Virus record (IMG/VR): IMGVR_UViG_3300037487_000968
Coordinates: 1 to 64,000 of that record
DNA: 64,000 nucleotides
Source of the DNA: a virus
Taxonomy: Duplodnaviria; Heunggongvirae; Uroviricota; Caudoviricetes
Reading direction: 5' to 3' (one strand)
Position 1 is the first letter of the stretch. Each line of letters opens with the position of its first letter. The notes below the pieces were generated by a model. The model worked only from the letters and a program-made list of their open reading frames with translations. It was not told the origin of the DNA and made no database searches. Below are positions 14,033 to 31,307 of the stretch, one piece after another. Both the position numbers and the translations under genes were made by a program.

Positions 14033-14206
14033 GCCTAATCTCTCCTTGATTAATTAAAAAATATCCAATATACTATTTATTAGTATTCTAGGTATTTAAC
14101 TCATTGGGGAAGATTATGGCGGGAAATGGCTGTAAAAGATGCCATTTTTTAAAAACTCATTGCGTAGAGTTATTTAGTCTCTATAATAGGGAAATAAACA
14201 ACTAGT

Positions 14207-14434
14207 TTATAGGCTTCCCATTCCACCGGCATCTGGCTCGGCAGATTGCCCATACATATCTGGTAGGAAGTTAAGATGTTGTGCCTTTTCGTACTTTTCG
14301 GCGTCGCGAGATTTTCTTAATTTTTGAATATGAAGCATAGTTAATCTCGGACGGCGAGTATCATCCATTTTTGCCTGGCCTAATTGGTCATCAGCTGGAT
14401 CATAAAATTCTACTAAGATTTCTCGTGCTTGCAT
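14207..14434 (-). CDS. Small head-module protein (possible internal/core protein)
   Basis: 75 aa, containing DDTRRPRLT. An N-terminal L-V-E matches gp21-type cleavage sites. A GATAAATA box sits at 14440-14447. Confidence 0.6.
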   Translation of the reverse strand: MQAREILVEFYDPADDQLGQAKMDDTRRPRLTMLHIQKLRKSRDAEKYEKAQHLNFLPDMYGQSAEPDAGGMGSL

Positions 14435-14452
14435 ATTCTTATTTATCTCTTA

Positions 14453-16169: not shown

Positions 16170-16688
16170 TTATCCTTTATTTCTTAAATTTTGTGCATCA
16201 CGTCTTGCCTGTGTCCACGGTTTGCCTTTTTTAGTGATAGATATTTTTATATAACGGCCATCATCTTTTCTTCCAATATTTGCCTGACGAACTTTTTCAG
16301 CATGTTCTGCTGTTTTCGTCCCTTTATAATTTGCTCTTTGTTCTTCTGTCCTAATTTTTCCTAAGTTTCCTAGAGAAATTTTTAATTTTGTTTCTTCGTT
16401 CTGTTTCTTTCCTAACATGCCTCTAGGACTTGCATGTCCGCCGTGAATTTTATTTTCAAGAATACCAGTACCATCAATTAATAATCCAAATTTTTCTGTA
16501 AGTTGTCGTTCTAATACCAATGCATCAACTTCTGTCATACATTCTTGTATAAATTGTCTAAATGCTCTCTTAGGTAATTTATACCCAGGATGTGGATCAT
16601 TAACTCGTGTACCGTGTCCATACCCAATATAGTATGGAGATCCATCTTCTCGAATGTATTGATAGACATAAAAAATAGTTTCCGACAT
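16170..16688 (-). CDS. Free-standing GIY-YIG/NUMOD3-type homing endonuclease
   Basis: N-terminal FYVYQY…PYYIGYG…R, followed by NUMOD3-like GKKQNEETKLKIS and RTEEQRA repeats. Confidence 0.8.
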   Translation of the reverse strand: MSETIFYVYQYIREDGSPYYIGYGHGTRVNDPHPGYKLPKRAFRQFIQECMTEVDALVLERQLTEKFGLLIDGTGILENKIHGGHASPRGMLGKKQNEETKLKISLGNLGKIRTEEQRANYKGTKTAEHAEKVRQANIGRKDDGRYIKISITKKGKPWTQARRDAQNLRNKG

Positions 16689-16689
16689 A

Positions 16690-19600
16690 TTATGCTTGTA
16701 CTCTTGCGTATTTTAGGATATCTTTATTAACTGATACTAAGTTATTTGTACTTAGTAGAAGTTGCTCTAATAACGAACTTTGATAACCAAGTGCAGTATT
16801 TATGCCTGTGTCGGCACTTGTCTTCTCTATTCCGGCGCCGTTTGCTTGTATACTCTCTTTTGGTGTTGCTTGCTCACCTTTAGAACCCTCTGCTGTCGAT
16901 ACTTGAGACGGACTGTTAAGTTCGGATGCCTTTGGTGTATTTGGCGTGCTCACACCTGCAGTTGATGTTGGTGCCGGCAGAGATACTGATCCTATCTTAG
17001 CTAATGCGCCAAATGCTAATGCTTTTACTATATCAATACCATTAATGGTTTCTACAATAGATTTTAATGTATCTAGTCCTGTAAATGCGCCCAATGAACC
17101 CGACAATGTATCTAATCCCGTTGATAATGAAATAAATGCGTTAGCTGAAGATTCTAATCCCGGTGCAAGGACAGATAATACCGATGATAAAATTTGTATT
17201 CCACTACCGGCAATACCAGCGGCTAATCCAAATGCTAATAATGCCATAGCACTTATATCGGTTAGTGCTGTTATACCAAGCGCAACATCTGTTAAACTTT
17301 CTCCATCTAATTCACCTAGTGGAACTAAACCTGCTGCCAATTCTGCTATTCCCGGTGCCGCAATACCAGCTGTCACCCCAAATGCTAATAACGCTACAGC
17401 ACTTATATCAGTTAATGCTTTTATTCCCGGTGCAATACTTAATAAACTACTAGCATCTAATTCACCTAGTGGAACTAAACCTGCTGCCAATTCTGCTATT
17501 CCCGGTGCCGCAATACCAGCGGCTAATCCAAATGCTAATAATGCCATAGCACTTATATCAGTTAATGCTTTTATTCCCGGTGCAATACTTAATAAACTAC
17601 TAGCATCTAATTCACCTAGTGGTACTAGACCTGCTGCCAATTCGATTATGCCAGGTGCGGCCGTACCAGCTGCCAATCCAAATGCTAATAGTTTTATAGC
17701 ATTTATATTAGATAAAGCGTCAATACCGGGCACGACACCTAATAAACTCTCGCCATCTAGTTCACCAATTGGAACTAGACCTGCTGCTAATTCTGCTATT
17801 CCAGGACCAGCAATACCAGCAGCTAATCCAAATGCTAATAATGCTATAGCACTTATATCAGCTAATGCTTCTATTCCAGGCGCGACACCTAATAAACTCT
17901 CGCCATCTAGTTCACCAATTGGGACTAAACCTTCTGCTAATATACTTATTCCAGGCCCAGCAATACCAGCAGCTAACCCAAATGCTAATAGTTTCATAGC
18001 ATTTATATTAGACAACGAATTTATGCCAACTGAATTAACTATTAATGCAATACCGTTTAATTTACTAAGTGGTACAAGACCTGCTGCTAATTCTGCTATT
18101 CCAGGACCAGCAATACCAGCAGCTAATCCAAACGCCATCAGCTTTATGGCATTTATATTAGACAACGAATCTATACCTATTGCATTAATTATTAATGCAA
18201 CACCGTCTACTTTACTAAGTGGTACTAATCCTGTTGCTAATTCGATTATACCAGGTGCTGAAATACTAGCGGCTAACCCGAATGCCATTAACCGTATGGC
18301 ATTTATATTAGATAATAAATTTATACCAATGGCATTAAGTATCAATGCAACACCATCTATTTTACCAAGTGGTACTAGACCTGCTGCGAGTAATTTTATT
18401 CCTTCGCCTGCTTTATCACCTACATATCCTAACCCTAGTAATCCAATTACGCTCACACTTGAAAGTTCATTTATACCCATTGCAACTGTGAATAAATTAA
18501 ATCCATCTATTTCGTTGAGTATAGCAAGACCTTCTGCTAATGCTTTTATACCGGGTGCAGCAACTAATGCCGAAAGGCCAAATGCCATTAATTTAATTTT
18601 GCCGGCAGCGGTTAATGCATCTATACCTTTTGCAAGACTAGCTAGATTTGCACCTTTTAATGGCTCTAATAATGCGAGACCTTCTGCTAATAGTTTTATA
18701 CCCGGTCCTGCAACTAGTGCTGCTATACCAAACGCTAATAACCCTGGAGCACCTATTAATAACCCAATAGATGCAAGGCCTGCTGCTGCACCTAATGCTA
18801 TTAAACCTCCGGCAACTTTAAGCATATCAGTGAATCCAATGCCGGCAAAAGCTTGCATGCCTTCGCCTATTAATTTAAGGCCATATCCTACACCAATTAT
18901 TCCGGGTGTGGCTATTAATGCTGCTGTACCTAAAGCTAATAATCCTGCTGATGCTATCAACATAAACGGTAATGCTATTGCAAGAGTGACAGCTAATGCA
19001 GCAATACCTGCGCCTACTCCTACTAATCCTACAAACCCTACAGTGGCAAGATTTGAAATTGCTTCGCTCATTATTTTAAATGCAAGACTAACACCGAGTA
19101 ATCCGGGTGTAGCTATTAATGCTGCTACACCTATTGCTATTAAACCTACTGACCCTGCTATTAAAAACGGAGTTGCTAATGCTAATGCAATAGATAACCC
19201 TGTTAATCCTACTGCCATGCCTAATAAACCTGCAACACCTATTGCACTAAGTTTTTCAAGGCTCGATGATAACATCATTAAGCCCGGGCTGGCTATTAAT
19301 GCAGCCACACCTAGTGCTGTTAATCCAACTGAACTTACTACCAATAACGGTGCTGCCAATCCTAGTGCAACACCAAACATAGTTAATGATGCTGCCACAC
19401 CTAATAAATCGTTTGCTTTAATGTCTGTGAGTGACTTTAATCCCCATGCTAACATTTTAATTGGTATAGCGGCAACTAATGCTGCTGCACCAAAAACTAT
19501 TAATCCAGGTGCTGCCATTATCAACAGAGGTGTTGCTAATATAAGAGCCGCAGCAAGGCTAGATATTCCTAAAGCAATACCTGCTATTTGCAACCCACTA

Positions 19601-21885
19601 ATTTCACTTAATCCTTTAAGACCTTGTGCTAATAAAGCTATTCCGGGACCTGCCACTAGTGATGCTGCGCCTAACGCTAATAATCCTATTGATCCTATTA
19701 TTAAAGCTGGTGCTGCAATTGATAGTCCTACACCGAGTCCTATAAGGGCTGCTGTAATACCTAATATCTGCATACCACTAACATTTTTTAAAGAATCTAA
19801 TCCTTTACCTAACATTTCGAAACCCGAACCGATCGATTGTATGCCGGCACCCAATAGCCAAAGAGATGCACCCATTACTGCTAATGCAGCGGCACCTGCT
19901 AATATAGCAACAGTTCCTACGCCGGTGCTCATTATAGCACCTAATCCCATTACGGCTAATGTTAAGCCTACTATAGCCACGCCTGCTTTTGCTAAATCTT
20001 CCCAACTTACTTTAGTAAATTCAGCGACTGCTTTTCCTGTAATCCATAGAGCGGCTGCAATACCCGCTAATGCAGACACACCTAATAAAACTTTTGGATT
20101 GCCTAATGCTTTTAATCCATCTGCTAATCCTATTAAAAATCCTTTAACACCTTTACCTAATCCTTTACCAATATCGCCAATACCTTTGCCAATCTTACCC
20201 ATTAGGTTACTGCCTTTACTACTCTTACCACCGGCGCGATCTGCTAAACTTTCAGTGACATGTGTTGTACCTTTCTTACCTGCTCCACCAAATGCCTTAG
20301 CCTTCATTGCCGATGTAATAGCAGTTAATGCAGTACCGAATAAATCTAAACTCTTATATAACGCAATACCTATAACTCCGATACCTATCCAGGCAGTTAA
20401 ATCGATGCCATCCGCGACACCGAATACTTTTAATACCGCTGATAGCCCGTCTGATAATTTATTGAATCCCCAAATAATAAATTCTAGTGGTGCTATTATA
20501 AGTTTCAAAACAGTAGTAAGTGCATTTAACATGGTAGCGGTTGGGCCAAATGCTCTTTGTAATAGAGATTTAAGATTTTCCCATGCTGTTGCAAGGTCTT
20601 TACTTGCCTTATTACTTGCCATTAATCGCTGTACTTCTTCTTCTTTAAGCGGTTTAATTGCATCTGCCTGCTGTGTTAATCCTACAATAAAATCTAATGA
20701 TGCCCCAGCGCCTTCAACACCGGCTTGCTTTAGCATATTTAATCGTTGCTTTTCTGCTTCAAGTTCGCCGCGATGTGCTTTTATATATTCTTTCATTTGT
20801 TGAGCTTGCATTTCTTCAGGCATGCCTTTCAGCCCTTCAGCAAAGGAAGCAAATGATTGGGCAAACCCACCCATACCTACTTTCTGAAGATTCATAAATG
20901 TTTCATTCAGTGGTTTAATAGGGTCTGTCATTAATTTTAAGATCTGCTTTGCTATATTTTGATCTTTAAACGATGATAAGAAAGCACCAACTCCTTGCGC
21001 TGCTTTGCTGCCAATTTGCCCATTCAATAAGTTTGCCTCAGTGCTCTTCGAAATTGATTCTATGTTGGCCATAATAGCCGCCCGAGACATCCCAGTAGCC
21101 ATTGTTAATCTAAAAATACCTGCGCCGAACTTTTGTAAGCCTTCTGATGTTTCGGCAGCAGTTTTAAGATTTACATCTGCTGAATTCTGCTGCACACTTA
21201 AATATGAACCTAATAGATCAGCAGATTCCTTACTTGAAAATCCAAATTGAGTTAAATTAGCACTTGCCATACCTACTGTCTTAGCAAATTTTCCAACACC
21301 GAAAGAATTTACAGAGGAACTATACTTCGCCATTGATGCTGCAAGTTCTGTGAATCTAACCCCCGTTTCTGCTGTAAGTTGGCGCAATGATTGAAAACCA
21401 TCCTTGGCTCCAGCAAATCCACTTATAACATTAACACCAGCAGCAGTTAGCTCATCAAATGTTTTTACATTATCTTCAAAAGCCTGCTTAATTGCTAGGC
21501 CAGATTTAATTATAGCAGAATTAAGAAATATTTGACTGTCAAAGTTATCTTTTTCTGATCTCCAACGCTTCTTTTGTCTTTTAGATTCTTCATCTACTTC
21601 TCTATTACGTTTTTTACGTCTAGGATCTTCGGATTCCAAATCTTTAATTAATTTTTCAAGTTCGGTCCTTGCCTTCTTCATATCCTCCGGCGTAAGACCG
21701 GTACCGCCTGCTGTGGCTGTTTTTAATAATTGAGCAAATGTTTTGGAGTGAATTCCGAGAGATTTTCTGAGAATGGCTTCTATTGACTCTGATGTCTTTT
21801 CAGTAGCCCACGGAGGAAGTTTCTCTAATTCATCAGAAATTGCACCTTCTGCAATGCCAGTAATATAAACAGAATTATCAGCCAT
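16690..21885 (-). CDS. Tape measure protein
   Basis: 1731 aa with a helical N-terminal half and a long A/G/L/I-rich hydrophobic repeat region; divergent from the gp26-like chaperone. Confidence 0.8.
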   Translation of the reverse strand: MADNSVYITGIAEGAISDELEKLPPWATEKTSESIEAILRKSLGIHSKTFAQLLKTATAGGTGLTPEDMKKARTELEKLIKDLESEDPRRKKRNREVDEESKRQKKRWRSEKDNFDSQIFLNSAIIKSGLAIKQAFEDNVKTFDELTAAGVNVISGFAGAKDGFQSLRQLTAETGVRFTELAASMAKYSSSVNSFGVGKFAKTVGMASANLTQFGFSSKESADLLGSYLSVQQNSADVNLKTAAETSEGLQKFGAGIFRLTMATGMSRAAIMANIESISKSTEANLLNGQIGSKAAQGVGAFLSSFKDQNIAKQILKLMTDPIKPLNETFMNLQKVGMGGFAQSFASFAEGLKGMPEEMQAQQMKEYIKAHRGELEAEKQRLNMLKQAGVEGAGASLDFIVGLTQQADAIKPLKEEEVQRLMASNKASKDLATAWENLKSLLQRAFGPTATMLNALTTVLKLIIAPLEFIIWGFNKLSDGLSAVLKVFGVADGIDLTAWIGIGVIGIALYKSLDLFGTALTAITSAMKAKAFGGAGKKGTTHVTESLADRAGGKSSKGSNLMGKIGKGIGDIGKGLGKGVKGFLIGLADGLKALGNPKVLLGVSALAGIAAALWITGKAVAEFTKVSWEDLAKAGVAIVGLTLAVMGLGAIMSTGVGTVAILAGAAALAVMGASLWLLGAGIQSIGSGFEMLGKGLDSLKNVSGMQILGITAALIGLGVGLSIAAPALIIGSIGLLALGAASLVAGPGIALLAQGLKGLSEISGLQIAGIALGISSLAAALILATPLLIMAAPGLIVFGAAALVAAIPIKMLAWGLKSLTDIKANDLLGVAASLTMFGVALGLAAPLLVVSSVGLTALGVAALIASPGLMMLSSSLEKLSAIGVAGLLGMAVGLTGLSIALALATPFLIAGSVGLIAIGVAALIATPGLLGVSLAFKIMSEAISNLATVGFVGLVGVGAGIAALAVTLAIALPFMLIASAGLLALGTAALIATPGIIGVGYGLKLIGEGMQAFAGIGFTDMLKVAGGLIALGAAAGLASIGLLIGAPGLLAFGIAALVAGPGIKLLAEGLALLEPLKGANLASLAKGIDALTAAGKIKLMAFGLSALVAAPGIKALAEGLAILNEIDGFNLFTVAMGINELSSVSVIGLLGLGYVGDKAGEGIKLLAAGLVPLGKIDGVALILNAIGINLLSNINAIRLMAFGLAASISAPGIIELATGLVPLSKVDGVALIINAIGIDSLSNINAIKLMAFGLAAGIAGPGIAELAAGLVPLSKLNGIALIVNSVGINSLSNINAMKLLAFGLAAGIAGPGISILAEGLVPIGELDGESLLGVAPGIEALADISAIALLAFGLAAGIAGPGIAELAAGLVPIGELDGESLLGVVPGIDALSNINAIKLLAFGLAAGTAAPGIIELAAGLVPLGELDASSLLSIAPGIKALTDISAMALLAFGLAAGIAAPGIAELAAGLVPLGELDASSLLSIAPGIKALTDISAVALLAFGVTAGIAAPGIAELAAGLVPLGELDGESLTDVALGITALTDISAMALLAFGLAAGIAGSGIQILSSVLSVLAPGLESSANAFISLSTGLDTLSGSLGAFTGLDTLKSIVETINGIDIVKALAFGALAKIGSVSLPAPTSTAGVSTPNTPKASELNSPSQVSTAEGSKGEQATPKESIQANGAGIEKTSADTGINTALGYQSSLLEQLLLSTNNLVSVNKDILKYARVQA
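17210..18400 (-). repeat. 150-nt (50 aa) tandem repeat array inside the tape measure gene
   Basis: Anchor TTCACCTAGT at 17311, 17461 and 17611; TTCACCAATT at 17761 and 17911; TTTACTAAGT at 18061 and 18211; TTTACCAAGT at 18361. Confidence 0.9.
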
Positions 21886-23048: not shown

Positions 23049-23624
23049 ATGCATAAGAAACCAGACACGCAAGAACTCAATATCCCGAGAGATGATGTCG
23101 AGTGCTGGGAACGTTATCCTAAACATCGTTGGGTATATGATTTATCAAGACTTCTTGACGCTCAAAATATTAAATGGAGTCCGTACGAAACTGATTTATT
23201 AAAAGATAAAGAAGTAAATATGTTTCTTGATACCTATAATAATGTAGAGTACGAACCCGGCTATATCTATATCAATAGCCCTCACGGAATTCATGTGATT
23301 ACAGAAGTTTATATCACAAAGGGTGAGATTAAGTTAGCAAGATATATAGACAAAGATACAAATATAGAAATTCAAGATACTATCGGTAATATAGAATTGC
23401 GAATTAATGCATTTATATCTATGCATTTTTTAAAATTCACTGGCATCATTACTATAGAATCAATCGGCAACAATATAATGTCGATTCGTTTGCGTCCCTA
23501 TTCAGAATTCGGGCTTAATGTTAATCCAGACATTGTTAGATTAACAAAGAGAATCTATAAGAAAACTGATATAACAGTAAATGGTCTTACAGACCAAGTC
23601 CTTCACGAAACACTCGCTTCGTAA
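23049..23624 (+). CDS. Hypothetical protein
   Basis: 191 aa ORF with RBS AAGGA and an N-terminal DDVECWERYPKHRWVYD motif; function not recognised. Confidence 0.7.
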   Translation: MHKKPDTQELNIPRDDVECWERYPKHRWVYDLSRLLDAQNIKWSPYETDLLKDKEVNMFLDTYNNVEYEPGYIYINSPHGIHVITEVYITKGEIKLARYIDKDTNIEIQDTIGNIELRINAFISMHFLKFTGIITIESIGNNIMSIRLRPYSEFGLNVNPDIVRLTKRIYKKTDITVNGLTDQVLHETLAS

Positions 23625-24274
23625 ACTCCGCTTCGTTTTTCGTTCGTACTGTTTACTTCGTGATTTAATAGTTATATAGATTATTGACGGAGGAGTCAGA
23701 CCAAGGGTATCCAAAACCTGGATACTGGAAGCCTTGACGGTTTCGCAGACTGTTATATCGGAAAATTTCATAGTGTTGGATTGATTATGTCAACTATCGC
23801 TAATACATATTAGCGTTCCTGAAGGGGTCTAAGGCGTTTTAAAGGCCACACAGACTCAATGCATTGTTACCACTTATAACCAATGATAACGCATTTGGGA
23901 GGGCATACCCGTTTCACGTGCCTCCCACAAACTTAAACTTGATCATCTTACTAAGAACGTGCATAGATCTCTCTGATGCTCTTTTCTTATGATCTTGCCA
24001 CTGCACATTCAGTGGGCCTGGCTGTTGCGCTCCTCTCCGAACGACACGCCAGCGAAATATTAACTAGGCTCGCTAACCTTATAATGTGATATAGAAACTT
24101 TTTTTTGGATTGCTTGAGTAAGAATTGGGCTTGCTTGAATAAACCTATACGCTGTTGGTCATATATGTTCACAGGGTGCGTCAGTCCTGCTATCTTTGTA
24201 ATTTTGCTTGAACAGTTTTTACTGTTACACTATTTTAGCTGTAACAATCTTTTATCATACACAATCTTGATATA
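23625..24274 (-). ncRNA. Putative large structured non-coding RNA (alternatively a replication origin)
   Basis: About 650 nt without a credible ORF between convergent genes, with at least nine stems. Several stems pair G-U on the minus strand but A-C on the plus strand. Confidence 0.55.
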
Positions 24275-24844
24275 CTATGTTGTTTTGATTGAATTCAGTG
24301 AAAACGTCCGCATTTCCTCAATTCGGCGTAGCCAGCCTGCTATATACTTCGATTGAGTTGGTTTCCTTGTTACAATATCTTTATAAAATTGTGCTCGCTG
24401 ATCACATATTTGATTGCACATAGAAACTGCATCTAAACCAGCAATTGATGCTAATGTTTGCTGACCGATGTGCCCGTCATCTTCGGTGCCAGCAGCTCTC
24501 TGTATAAATTTGCTTGCCGTACCTACACCATGATTTACACACCCGTCAAACTGTAATAAAGCAACATGATTAGGAAGTTTATCACATGAGCCTGCTAGCC
24601 AGTATTCTTTATAATATATACTTTCCGCCATATCCCACGTCAGCCCAGCGATATCAATACTCTGATGAGAATTTTTTGCTATACCGTATTTTGTTTCTCC
24701 ACCGGGATCAATAGGATCATTACTATATCCACATTTAGAAAGATTAGTGCCATCTCGAACACCAGGTGCTTCTAGATTCCATGACCCGCCCACTTCGTAC
24801 AACATAAGACGATTTATTGCATTTTCGAATATTTTTGAATACAT
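24275..24844 (-). CDS. Glycoside hydrolase family 108 lysozyme with peptidoglycan-binding domain (endolysin candidate)
   Basis: GYSNDPIDPGGETKYGI, FDGCVNHG, DDGHIGQQT, GWLRRI. Confidence 0.9.
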   Translation of the reverse strand: MYSKIFENAINRLMLYEVGGSWNLEAPGVRDGTNLSKCGYSNDPIDPGGETKYGIAKNSHQSIDIAGLTWDMAESIYYKEYWLAGSCDKLPNHVALLQFDGCVNHGVGTASKFIQRAAGTEDDGHIGQQTLASIAGLDAVSMCNQICDQRAQFYKDIVTRKPTQSKYIAGWLRRIEEMRTFSLNSIKTT

Positions 24845-24853
24845 ATATCTACC

Positions 24854-25414
24854 TCATACGACAAAGTTCCCATAGAAACATTTTCCATAGCATCCGTTTT
24901 GTCCTGTTAATTCTGTTACCTTACCAGGCTGTCCTATCCACTTTTCTAAATTCTGCTGTGTCAGCATATGTGGGTGGCCTTCGTGTGCAGGTATATCAAT
25001 CCACTCAAACATTCGTAGCACCTTAGCAGCACGTTTGGCATTCTGAATAATCTTCTTTGGATTTTCCGAATGTTGCATAACATTGTAGATCCATACTTCA
25101 TCCCATCCGGTTTCTTTAACATCCTCGCCACCCACTACCTGAACTGAGATATTTTTGCTCTTATATCTATCTTTAGTCCATTGGGGATAATTTATAGGAT
25201 CACAAACTTTACCTTCGACAAGATTATATGTCTTTAATAACATAGAAGTAGGCCCACCGCCAATATCGAGTATTCTTTTATTCCCTGCATCATACGAAAA
25301 ATAATTACCTATTAACCCCATTAAATTACCATAGATAAAATGCTTTTGGTCTTCGCCAAACGTATTACAGCAATCACCCCAAAACCCCTGCTCAAATTCT
25401 AAATCATTATGCAT
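24854..25414 (-). CDS. Class I SAM-dependent methyltransferase
   Basis: Motif I ILDIGGGP; DEVWIYNVMQH; overlaps the GT4 stop. Confidence 0.8.
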   Translation of the reverse strand: MHNDLEFEQGFWGDCCNTFGEDQKHFIYGNLMGLIGNYFSYDAGNKRILDIGGGPTSMLLKTYNLVEGKVCDPINYPQWTKDRYKSKNISVQVVGGEDVKETGWDEVWIYNVMQHSENPKKIIQNAKRAAKVLRMFEWIDIPAHEGHPHMLTQQNLEKWIGQPGKVTELTGQNGCYGKCFYGNFVV

Positions 25415-26543
25415 GGGGATATTCCTTTTTTAACCAGTCTAAATCTTTTCTATTAGGATTAGGTTCATACCAGCCTTTCTTACCATGCACATTTAATACC
25501 GATTGAAAATATTCTTCGTACATAGGTGCTATTCTTTCCATAGAATAATTCTTTTCTGCATAATTTCTACAATCTGCTGGTTTAATATTACCAATATTTT
25601 TAGCTGCCCATACAAACTGTTCAAATGTTCTACCGCGATATCCTGTATAACTATGTATATTATTTTCAGCCAACGCACCCCAATCGGACGATATAACAGG
25701 TGTCCCTGACAACATAGATTCTATCTGCACTCCTGCGAACGGCTCGTTGTACATCGAGATAACAAATGTAGCACGAGCTTTACTCATTAGTTTTCGCCTT
25801 AATTCTGTATCAGCATGGCCAACTTCAGTGACATGACTAGGAATAGTCTTATATCCCATATCTAATAAACTACCTTGGCCTGCAATAATTAATTTTGCTC
25901 CAATTTCTCTAGTAATTTGTTCAGCAATATGAACACCTTTACCGTCATATACACGCCCTATATACAAGAAGTAATCATCTTTCTTCTTTGAATATGTAAA
26001 GTCATTCAAGTCAAAGTAGTTAGGTATCACAACTTCGTACCAGTCTTCGTTACATTTCAACACGCTATTTAATCCATAATAGGCAGAATGCATGGCATAT
26101 GACTCAAAAATCTTATACCGTGCCCAGTGCCCAGCAGGGTATCCAATACCAGGTTCAACTGTAATAAGATCGGGGTGAGCATCACACACAGGTCTAACAC
26201 CATGCCCCCAAAACGGTAATATGAAATCGTTTGGTTGTTTGCGTTTTCCAATTTCTTTAATAGCATTCTTAAAGAAAGTTTGATATGCCAGATCATTTAG
26301 ATCGTATTTAAAGAATGTCTTACGCCAGTCGTAATCACCATATGTTTGTTTCCAAACATCAGAAGTTAAAACTGTAACATGTTCATCGCAAACGACATCA
26401 GATTCTTCGTGGCCGTAGTGTATGATAGTATGTCCACGTCCTGCCATCATCTGACAAAACTTAACTACTTTTTGTGTGAAGGCACAGGCAGTAAATTCTT
26501 TACTACTAACCGTATGCGGAACGCCTAATACATGAAATCTCAT
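25407..26543 (-). CDS. Glycosyltransferase family 4 (GT-B fold)
   Basis: FLYIGRVYDGKG, EPFAGVQIESMLSGTPVISSDWGALAE. Confidence 0.9.
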   Translation of the reverse strand: MRFHVLGVPHTVSSKEFTACAFTQKVVKFCQMMAGRGHTIIHYGHEESDVVCDEHVTVLTSDVWKQTYGDYDWRKTFFKYDLNDLAYQTFFKNAIKEIGKRKQPNDFILPFWGHGVRPVCDAHPDLITVEPGIGYPAGHWARYKIFESYAMHSAYYGLNSVLKCNEDWYEVVIPNYFDLNDFTYSKKKDDYFLYIGRVYDGKGVHIAEQITREIGAKLIIAGQGSLLDMGYKTIPSHVTEVGHADTELRRKLMSKARATFVISMYNEPFAGVQIESMLSGTPVISSDWGALAENNIHSYTGYRGRTFEQFVWAAKNIGNIKPADCRNYAEKNYSMERIAPMYEEYFQSVLNVHGKKGWYEPNPNRKDLDWLKKEYPHA

Positions 26544-30647: not shown

Positions 30648-31307
30648 TTATGATCTGCAATCTATTACAGGATCTCTTAATTTGATACATTTAAATCCTT
30701 TAAATGAATCCTTTGTTTTACAGACTTTTAGTCCATACTGAACATCTATTCCTAATGCTCTTGATGCTAACCCACAAGAATTAAATATACTCTCGTTTCC
30801 AAATAGATCAATTATTTTTATCTTATACCCATACTTAGAATGTTGTTCTTTTTCTTTATCTGTGAATCCAGTGGTAGCAATCCGATGCAATCTTTTTTCT
30901 ATCTTAATCTTATAAGATTTAATTTCTTCTTTACTTAACCCATAATTTAGATGTTTTTCTCTAAGGGTAGCAGCCCTTTTATCTATATGTTGATTTGTAA
31001 TAAATGACCATCCTCCACATGCCTCATTCTTCTGATTATAGTAATTCGAATTAGATTTTATATCTGTTATAGAATCTAACCACTTCTGCTCATACTTTAG
31101 TGTCTCTTTATTATCGTCAACATTTATATATTCTAAGATATATCTAGTAAAATCAAAAGGTCTTTTTTTAATTGCTCGCAAGAACCTAGTATTTGATCCT
31201 TTATATCGATCATTTAAAGATCCATGATGAGAGCCTATGTAATTCATACCATTACTTAGATCTAACCATTTATACACGAACCCGTAATAATCTATTTTAT
31301 ATATCAT
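30648..31307 (-). CDS. Free-standing GIY-YIG (Seg-like) homing endonuclease
   Basis: GFVYKW…NYIGSHHG…YKGS, EQKWL, YYN; inserted between the gp55 and gp47 genes. Confidence 0.8.
   Translation of the reverse strand: MIYKIDYYGFVYKWLDLSNGMNYIGSHHGSLNDRYKGSNTRFLRAIKKRPFDFTRYILEYINVDDNKETLKYEQKWLDSITDIKSNSNYYNQKNEACGGWSFITNQHIDKRAATLREKHLNYGLSKEEIKSYKIKIEKRLHRIATTGFTDKEKEQHSKYGYKIKIIDLFGNESIFNSCGLASRALGIDVQYGLKVCKTKDSFKGFKCIKLRDPVIDCRS

Follow-up and report, generated by a model that had tools for sequence, protein, structure and literature searches.

Type III antitoxin RNAs and RNA anti-CRISPR mimics carry repeated units that are read or cut by one protein, and phages employ such RNAs as decoys. 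At a larger scale, the phage-borne RNAs ROOL and GOLLD are several hundred nucleotides long and combine many covarying helices with a variable linker and 5′ region (accessible part of PMC12286853). A third point of comparison is ncRNA004 of phage PA5oct, which spans 246116-246734, accounts for 0.02-0.08% of phage reads and is uncharacterised in the accessible part of its description (Lood et al. 2020, PMC7318152). Here, we describe a candidate RNA gene in the window, our term for the whole 64,000-nt stretch of DNA analysed. The predicted RNA shares all of the listed traits with ROOL and GOLLD; it differs in having no sequence or covariance-model match to them, no tRNA alongside and no covarying kissing loops seen, and in belonging to lytic-type jumbo myophages. 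It also carries two short 3′ words that change in concert, which is undescribed for ROOL and GOLLD in the accessible part of PMC12286853. Unlike the type III antitoxin and anti-CRISPR RNAs, it has just two short words, no tandem array and no Rfam match, and no toxin or Cas gene was found among the 39 window proteins scanned.

The window covers the structural region of a jumbo myophage, with genes for the portal, major head protein, baseplate, gp46/47-like nuclease subunits and a gp55-like late sigma factor; its parent contig measures 210 kb and is 55% complete. The baseplate hub is 43% identical to the hub of PA5oct and ~30% identical to those of GAP32-like phages. A GATAAATA box recurs upstream of the genes at 1809, 9915, 14434, 32395, 39434, 58202 and 60142, and is likely the late promoter that the gp55-like sigma factor recognizes. 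Homing-endonuclease-like genes of PHROG 314 stand alone at two places, 16170-16688 and 30648-31307, and a 1285-codon antisense ORF on the plus strand (16946-20803), which overlies a repetitive 1731-aa tape-measure-like gene, is probably a shadow of that gene's repeats. The methyltransferase-like and GT4 gene pair at 24854-26543 is 96-97% identical in L002, L003 and L005, where its neighbours reach 55-82%. Given this excess and the absence of the pair from most relatives, it is best read as a recently moved cassette. Outside the window (G000:C1:85000-156000), many stretches of 0.5-2 kb lack ORFs of at least 90 aa, some of them GC-richer, and could be small genes or further RNAs.

As the preliminary description had observed, the gap at 23625-24274 is the longest ORF-poor stretch of the window, the others being 1-390 and 14033-14452. 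The genes on either side are intact and convergent:

24275..24844, minus strand: GH108 endolysin, upstream neighbour of the RNA (Pfam PF05838 + PF09374, PHROG 315)
23049..23624, plus strand: 191-aa protein, downstream convergent neighbour (no Pfam or PHROG family)

For the 191-aa protein, the nearest named Atlas clusters are ATP-grasp/PurP-like at 0.90, and an ATP-grasp-like identity is a lead only; INPHARED held no match, and the AlphaFold model (pLDDT 46) was unreliable and was not used.

Homologues were collected along two routes. Using the 191-aa neighbour, we found 34 IMG/VR loci, 31 with the element in the same place and on the same strand, two with a different core and one cut short. 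Pattern scans that were independent of the neighbour yielded 30 true loci of 35, 44 of 44, and 63 among the 80 matches listed; chance matches (5 of the 35 loci, and 17 among the 80 matches listed) were dropped before counting, and 14 further loci lacking the motif or sufficient flank were left out. With chance and truncated loci removed, clustering at 97% identity reduced 158 sequences to 57, window included; these derive from uncultured PA5oct/GAP32-like jumbo phages. We found no cellular copy in GTDB, since each of the seven pattern-scan matches there is confined to the 21-nt pattern. Blastn searches of INPHARED with the gap, a stretch of L055 and a copy from a second locus beside phoH returned chance matches or nothing, and the window's contig contains no second copy of the RNA or of its bipartite word. 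Genes are occasionally inserted nearby, namely glycine-rich ORFs between endolysin and RNA in L034 and L040, and GIY-YIG-like ORFs, recognized by eye, after the RNA in L053 and before it in L138 and L155.

The aligned core consists of six hairpin arms, a three-way junction and a 3′ module, the last of which is itemized further below:

23683..24080, minus strand: conserved RNA core of ~400 nt (57 sequences; homologues 355-453 nt; mean pairwise identity 68%)
24020..24050, minus strand: hairpin with internal bulges, whose loop-closing G.G / A.A pair (24038-24033) covaries
23998..24015, minus strand: covarying hairpin
23941..23994, minus strand: covarying stem with a conserved purine-rich internal loop and a variable apical hairpin
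23896..23927, minus strand: most strongly covarying stem (7 pairs formed in 57/57 sequences), with a near-invariant apical loop region
23858..23895, minus strand: covarying bulged hairpin
23825..23857, minus strand: covarying stem with a length-variable tip
23760..23819, minus strand: three-way junction (closing helix 23819-23816/23763-23760, hairpins 23815-23798 and 23797-23770)

The junction's closing helix forms in every one of the 57 sequences, position pair 23818-23761 occurs as three different pair types, and hairpin 23797-23770 displays a near-invariant 12-nt loop. Such invariant unpaired motifs suggest a tertiary core.

Covariation across these homologues provides the principal evidence for a structured RNA. 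In a G-test with a tree-based null on all 57 sequences, 16 pairs scored above every null value, 15 of them nested and Watson-Crick and the last a G.G/A.A pair in a loop. In a 30-sequence subset of the 57, both sides had changed in 49 of the 76 consensus pairs, and 97.7% of cells pair compared with 33-48% for slid partners, a figure favoured by the consensus structure having come from the same 30-sequence alignment. For the 68 pairs predicted on both strands, 269 G-U cells versus 73 A-C cells occur on the minus strand, which confirms the strand that had been deduced from G-U pairing in the window itself. Over 10 homologues, core identity to the window is 0.61-0.86, while four-fold codon sites of both neighbour genes mostly give 0.3-0.55, making the core the more conserved in most of the 10 comparisons. 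A protein-coding role can be excluded, with just 95 of 699 indels in multiples of three and no Pfam match for the three small ORFs in the gap. On this comparative evidence, we consider the gap to be RNA structure under selection rather than a decayed gene, and a real structured RNA gene is nearly certain to lie within it. The proposal that the minus strand encodes a large RNA, structured and non-coding, is thereby upheld, as is its GOLLD/ROOL-class scale.

Details of the proposed fold required revision. The nine stems reported in the preliminary description are all where it placed them, and each folds on at least one strand, but two were described wrongly and one is unconserved. The stem at 23702-23736 is present with a 6-nt bulge that had been omitted; 23941-23994, depicted as a multiloop enclosing two hairpins, instead folds as a single nested stem with internal loops; and the stem at 24223-24246 exists, although it extends across the -10-like box (24237-24232) and its pairing is not kept among the relatives. 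The preliminary description had missed conserved helix 24050-24020, the long-range pairing of 23819-23816 with 23763-23760, a 5′ pseudoknot and the 3′ twin word. The folding energy of the gap is no better than chance (z -0.67 on the minus strand and -1.57 on the plus strand, 20 shuffles), and one of 37 sliding windows of 120 nt lay beyond z -3. The conserved unit (~24225-23683) is narrower than the gap.

Searches against known RNA classes gave no match. Rfam searches of the window, the gap, 14 loci and L055 returned nothing at the gathering score; specifically, GOLLD, ROOL and OLE gave nothing at that score in the window and 14 loci, and no hit at E up to 10 in the gap. The earlier judgement that the RNA is not a tRNA, tmRNA, RNase P RNA or intron holds: ARAGORN detected no tRNA in the window (the contig's four all lie beyond 97 kb), neither ARAGORN in the window nor Rfam revealed tmRNA features, and Rfam contained no covariance-model match to RNase P RNA, group I/II introns or ribozymes. 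A few short loop words resemble the RNase P specificity domain, which we treat as a lead only. Covarying loop-loop pairs in the core did not reach significance in a test to which invariant pairs would be invisible, and the sole pseudoknot lies in the optional 5′ module. The accessible parts of the literature, including PMC10690425 and PMC13282480, hold no description of this RNA family that we could find, and the family's terms do not occur in the accessible part of bioRxiv 10.64898/2026.09.15.751765. Four supplementary files of Fremin et al. 2023, which concerns IMG/VR candidates of at most 151 nt, contain no match, and fragments may be listed in the remainder of that source, probably including its alignments. 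With neither an Rfam match nor a description found in the literature, the family is uncatalogued.

Upstream of the core, we identified promoter-like and accessory elements:

24263..24270, minus strand: putative TCAAnATT-type element of a promoter-like motif, lying upstream of the -10-like box with constant spacing
24232..24237, minus strand: -10-like hexamer TAAAAT (predicted start near 24225)
24223..24246, no strand assigned: hairpin overlapping the promoter, present in the window, unconserved as a stem
24125..24195, minus strand: optional 5′ module, with hairpin 24190-24171 and its loop 24181-24178 pairing with 24152-24149 (pseudoknot)
24081..24124, minus strand: A-rich linker of variable length

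The two-part promoter-like motif is found in 42 of the 54 loci with enough upstream DNA and spans 39 nt in total in 38 of 41. It occurs once in the 210-kb contig, is unlike the late box GATAAATA that precedes structural genes, and was not picked up by a sigma-70 scan. Its conservation suggests that the RNA is likely transcribed from its own promoter, with a predicted length of ~540 nt and predicted ends of ~24225 and ~23685. The RNA had been proposed to be selected as part of a GT4-MTase-lysozyme late operon; this own motif, a terminator-like hairpin immediately before it in 11 of 41 loci, and the lack of the GT-MTase pair in most relatives argue otherwise. Because the hairpin at 24223-24246 overlaps the -10-like box and is unconserved, it probably lies outside the RNA. 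In the 5′ pseudoknot, the loop can base-pair with its partner in all 34 pattern-matched loci, with three variants (30/3/1), the search pattern itself having limited the variants allowed. This module is missing from L028, L048, L148 and the phoH-locus copies, and is kept in L053 and L055 despite their different core.

RNA-library contigs match the window at 99% identity or more over 23688-24038 (freshwater run X1) and 24104-24254 (X3); they indicate presence, neither strand nor ends, and DNA carry-over is possible. The X1 contig also spans neighbouring genes and stops at 23688, inside the last conserved word, a weak hint of an end. Extension of the X3 contig ~30 nt upstream of the predicted start fits read-through or DNA. 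Run X2 covers the neighbours and not the RNA, and 11 of the 14 listed runs contained almost none of the words, neither of which is evidence of absence. No joint was found within three RNA-library contig sets, a result compatible with processing.

A bipartite word is present twice at the 3′ end of the RNA:

23735..23750, minus strand: copy 1 of the word (GTCTG ... CCGTCA), second half within a hairpin loop (hairpin 23744-23728)
23703..23725, minus strand: hairpin between the two words, ending in an invariant ATACCCT motif
23685..23701, minus strand: copy 2 of the word, at the 3′ edge of conservation

The two copies change together. At nine positions, picked after inspection and with two registers set by hand, parsimony on a tree from the same alignment counted 19 same-branch, same-base changes, out of 25 in copy 1 and 24 in copy 2, against 1.4 expected from branch lengths. 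Adding two flanking positions, again by parsimony on that tree, gave 25 concerted changes of 52/43 against 6.1 expected. Matching is confined to word halves of only 4-6 nt; the enclosed middle differs between copies in 57 of 57 sequences, and position 2 of the second half is unmatched (19/57 identical versus 17 expected). The interval between the words was neither deleted nor duplicated in any of the 57 sequences. The hairpin whose loop contains the second half of copy 1 has five or more stem base pairs in 44 of 57 sequences compared with 30% for shuffled flanks, while copy 2 can close a local 4-bp hairpin in 45 of 57 and on that account is perhaps unexposed. In a search for a cis partner of the variant words, no alignment column within -400/+175 paired with them and no common position emerged within -750/+330. 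We also considered pairing with the conserved F-D-G codons of the endolysin and rejected it, as the gene does not follow the variant words. Identity covariation without a cis partner leaves two explanations, a single external factor reading both copies or copying of one from the other, of which we favor the former.

Other properties of the word bear on what such a factor might be. The central triplets are GTC, GTT, GGT, GGC, GTG, CCC and TTC, each followed by a purine, with ATC occurring too, and copy 2 mostly lacks a preceding U; anticodon mimicry is a lead. Two copies of the RNA in one genome can bear different words (L012 versus L093; L063 versus L206), which argues against a single fixed host target. 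Separately, a T-box-like tRNA sensor was rejected, given that UGGU and UGGC accompany the same triplet, the window type has no UGG and Rfam gives no match.

Upstream of phoH lies a diverged second copy that lacks the 5′ module; this arrangement accounts for 6 of the 57 sequences and is found in 3 of the 4 complete genomes. The phoH-locus copies (L089, L093, L105, L138, L149, L165, L206, L207) sit just before a convergent phoH-like gene and downstream of HAD-like and kinase-like genes, named by eye from translations; the neighbouring genes differ between the endolysin and phoH loci. Elsewhere, the slot itself holds two RNA families that cannot be aligned to the window's core, one related to PA5oct ncRNA004 and the other a multicopy RNA of RaK2/GAP32-like phages. 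Since L053 (4200-4878) and L055 (3574-4367) share the promoter and 5′ pseudoknot module of the window RNA with another core behind them, cores in this position look exchangeable. The replacement core has a 26-30-nt word in common with the PA5oct slot stretch, which is itself homologous to ncRNA004 (126 nt at 82.5%, E 2e-31) and lies between resolvase and baseplate hub. A pattern scan for this core gave 94 loci, of which the profile scored only two known contigs; L259 and L275, two further loci of the scan, adjoin a hub gene and are grouped with L053 and L055 as a second RNA family in this slot. The PA5oct stretch (L204:8860-9730 minus; NC_071039.1, about 75980-76850) is annotated as the small CDS gp338-gp340. 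It looks like a non-coding RNA and can form a 25-nt long-range helix to its 3′ end. The window RNA thus resembles ncRNA004 through this homologue in the same slot and the word shared with the replacement core, but it differs in that its core has no detectable homology to ncRNA004, in which a twin word is not evident.

In GAP32, the slot is occupied by a third RNA of ~0.5 kb, present in 72 INPHARED records and in five copies in GAP32 itself. Copies at L205:8230-8830 and L215-L218 (GAP32) and at L345-L349 are unannotated or mis-annotated as small CDS. A word is repeated around a hairpin in 10 of 10 RaK2/GAP32-type copies examined, and in one GAP32 copy and the RaK2 copy both words had changed together; L053, L055 and L275 repeat other words, likewise ending word-hairpin-word. 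This RNA is similar to the window's in slot and strand in GAP32, in its ~0.5-kb size, and in having a 3′ word-hairpin-word module, a CGTCA core and concerted change. It differs in that the profiles are mutually blind, its promoter is of the extended -10 type, and it occurs in 4-5 copies versus 1-2. Reciprocal profile HMM and covariance-model searches found no link between the window core and either the ncRNA004 or the RaK2/GAP32 family. Common descent of the word-hairpin-word module is plausible.

We favor a reading in which the twin 3′ words would be docking or cutting sites for a single trans partner, with the RNA a decoy or scaffold, and assign it a probability of roughly 0.4. The minus-strand gene would yield a folded non-coding RNA of the predicted size from its own promoter, and the fold would present the two word copies as twin sites. 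One trans partner, such as a host or phage nuclease, an RNA or an RNA-binding protein, would read both, and in infected cells the RNA would serve as its decoy or scaffold. Our inferences are the activity of the promoter, where the transcript starts and stops, and that a partner exists for which the RNA is a decoy; the twin-site reading draws on the concerted change of the words, the lack of a cis partner and the placement of copy 1 in a hairpin loop. It also draws on the recurrence of the layout in a family that is not alignable to the window core and on the second, diverged RNA copies that 3 of the 4 complete genomes carry. Against it, concerted change could arise without function if repeats 50-90 bp apart were copied into each other at the DNA level.

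Alternatively, the RNA may assemble with itself, without protein, into an oligomer or cage as ROOL and GOLLD do, with the twin words incidental or engaged in inter-subunit contacts. Similar size, phage origin, a multi-helix core, an unconserved linker and a variable 5′ part (accessible part of PMC12286853) agree with such an assembly, as does the lack of a dedicated protein partner, the neighbours differing between the two loci. We nevertheless find it doubtful, given that homology to GOLLD, ROOL or OLE, a significantly covarying core loop-loop pair and a nearby tRNA are all missing, and that two identical words cannot form Watson-Crick pairs with one another. Quite unlikely is an RNA that is catalytic or processes itself, the words being equivalent sites of cutting or joining at which the hairpin between them would be excised or circularised. 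Two equivalent sites do lie on either side of a single conserved hairpin, the invariant ATACCCT motif has alternative pairings around it, and the invariant unpaired motifs would suit a catalytic tertiary core; however, an internal guide ought to covary with the words and none does, and Rfam offers no ribozyme or intron match.

Repeat-hairpin-repeat layouts are known slippage substrates, and slippage or gene conversion at the DNA level could have made the words concerted, with the RNA working in some other way. This would require no partner, but slippage should delete or duplicate the interval, which was seen in 0 of 57 sequences, and the matching halves are just 4-6 nt around a middle kept non-identical in all 57; we judge it improbable. 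Template realignment between repeats occurs in telomerase and in some defence-associated RT systems. A template for reverse transcription would, through template jumping, predict identity covariation without a cis partner. Against this stand a mismatched repeat centre and the absence of RVT_1 (PF00078) from the window's contig (55% complete) and from five related records (0/5; four complete); even with a host or very diverged RT being possible, a template role is very improbable. By the same Pfam result (0/1 and 0/5 records), an RT-associated RNA of the retron, DRT or DGR type was not supported. Least probable of all is a DNA element, such as an origin of replication or packaging, or a 3′ UTR that regulates the endolysin operon in cis: the site between convergent genes, direct repeats that could bind protein and the one RNA-library contig running upstream of the predicted start are outweighed by strand-biased G-U pairs, an own promoter-like motif, copies beside phoH without endolysin, unrelated genes between endolysin and RNA in L034 and L040, and a skew that tracks gene orientation with no inflection at the gap, which also counts against the replication origin raised in the preliminary description.

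Large phage RNAs of unknown function, such as GOLLD and ROOL, are an open problem, and the present family supplies a clue that those RNAs lack, namely a short word kept twice and repeatedly changed in both places at once. A concerted twin word points at a specific partner. In a broader and, in our view, unlikely scenario, PA5oct/GAP32/RaK2-related phages would keep a superfamily of interchangeable ~0.5-kb RNAs with twin-word ends, present at one ancient locus and as extra copies, in which unrelated-looking cores all end in the twin-word module. The word would then be a re-programmable address, for instance a decoy that resembles an anticodon and diverts a host tRNA nuclease, or a pair of cleavage sites releasing the enclosed hairpin. 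If true, this would amount to an RNA-based counter-defence, or an RNA machine, of a novel type. Word-repeating RNAs occupy the same slot in cultured phages (GAP32, RaK2, 121Q), alongside a relative of the transcribed PA5oct RNA, which makes the question testable in the laboratory even though the window's phage and host are uncultured.
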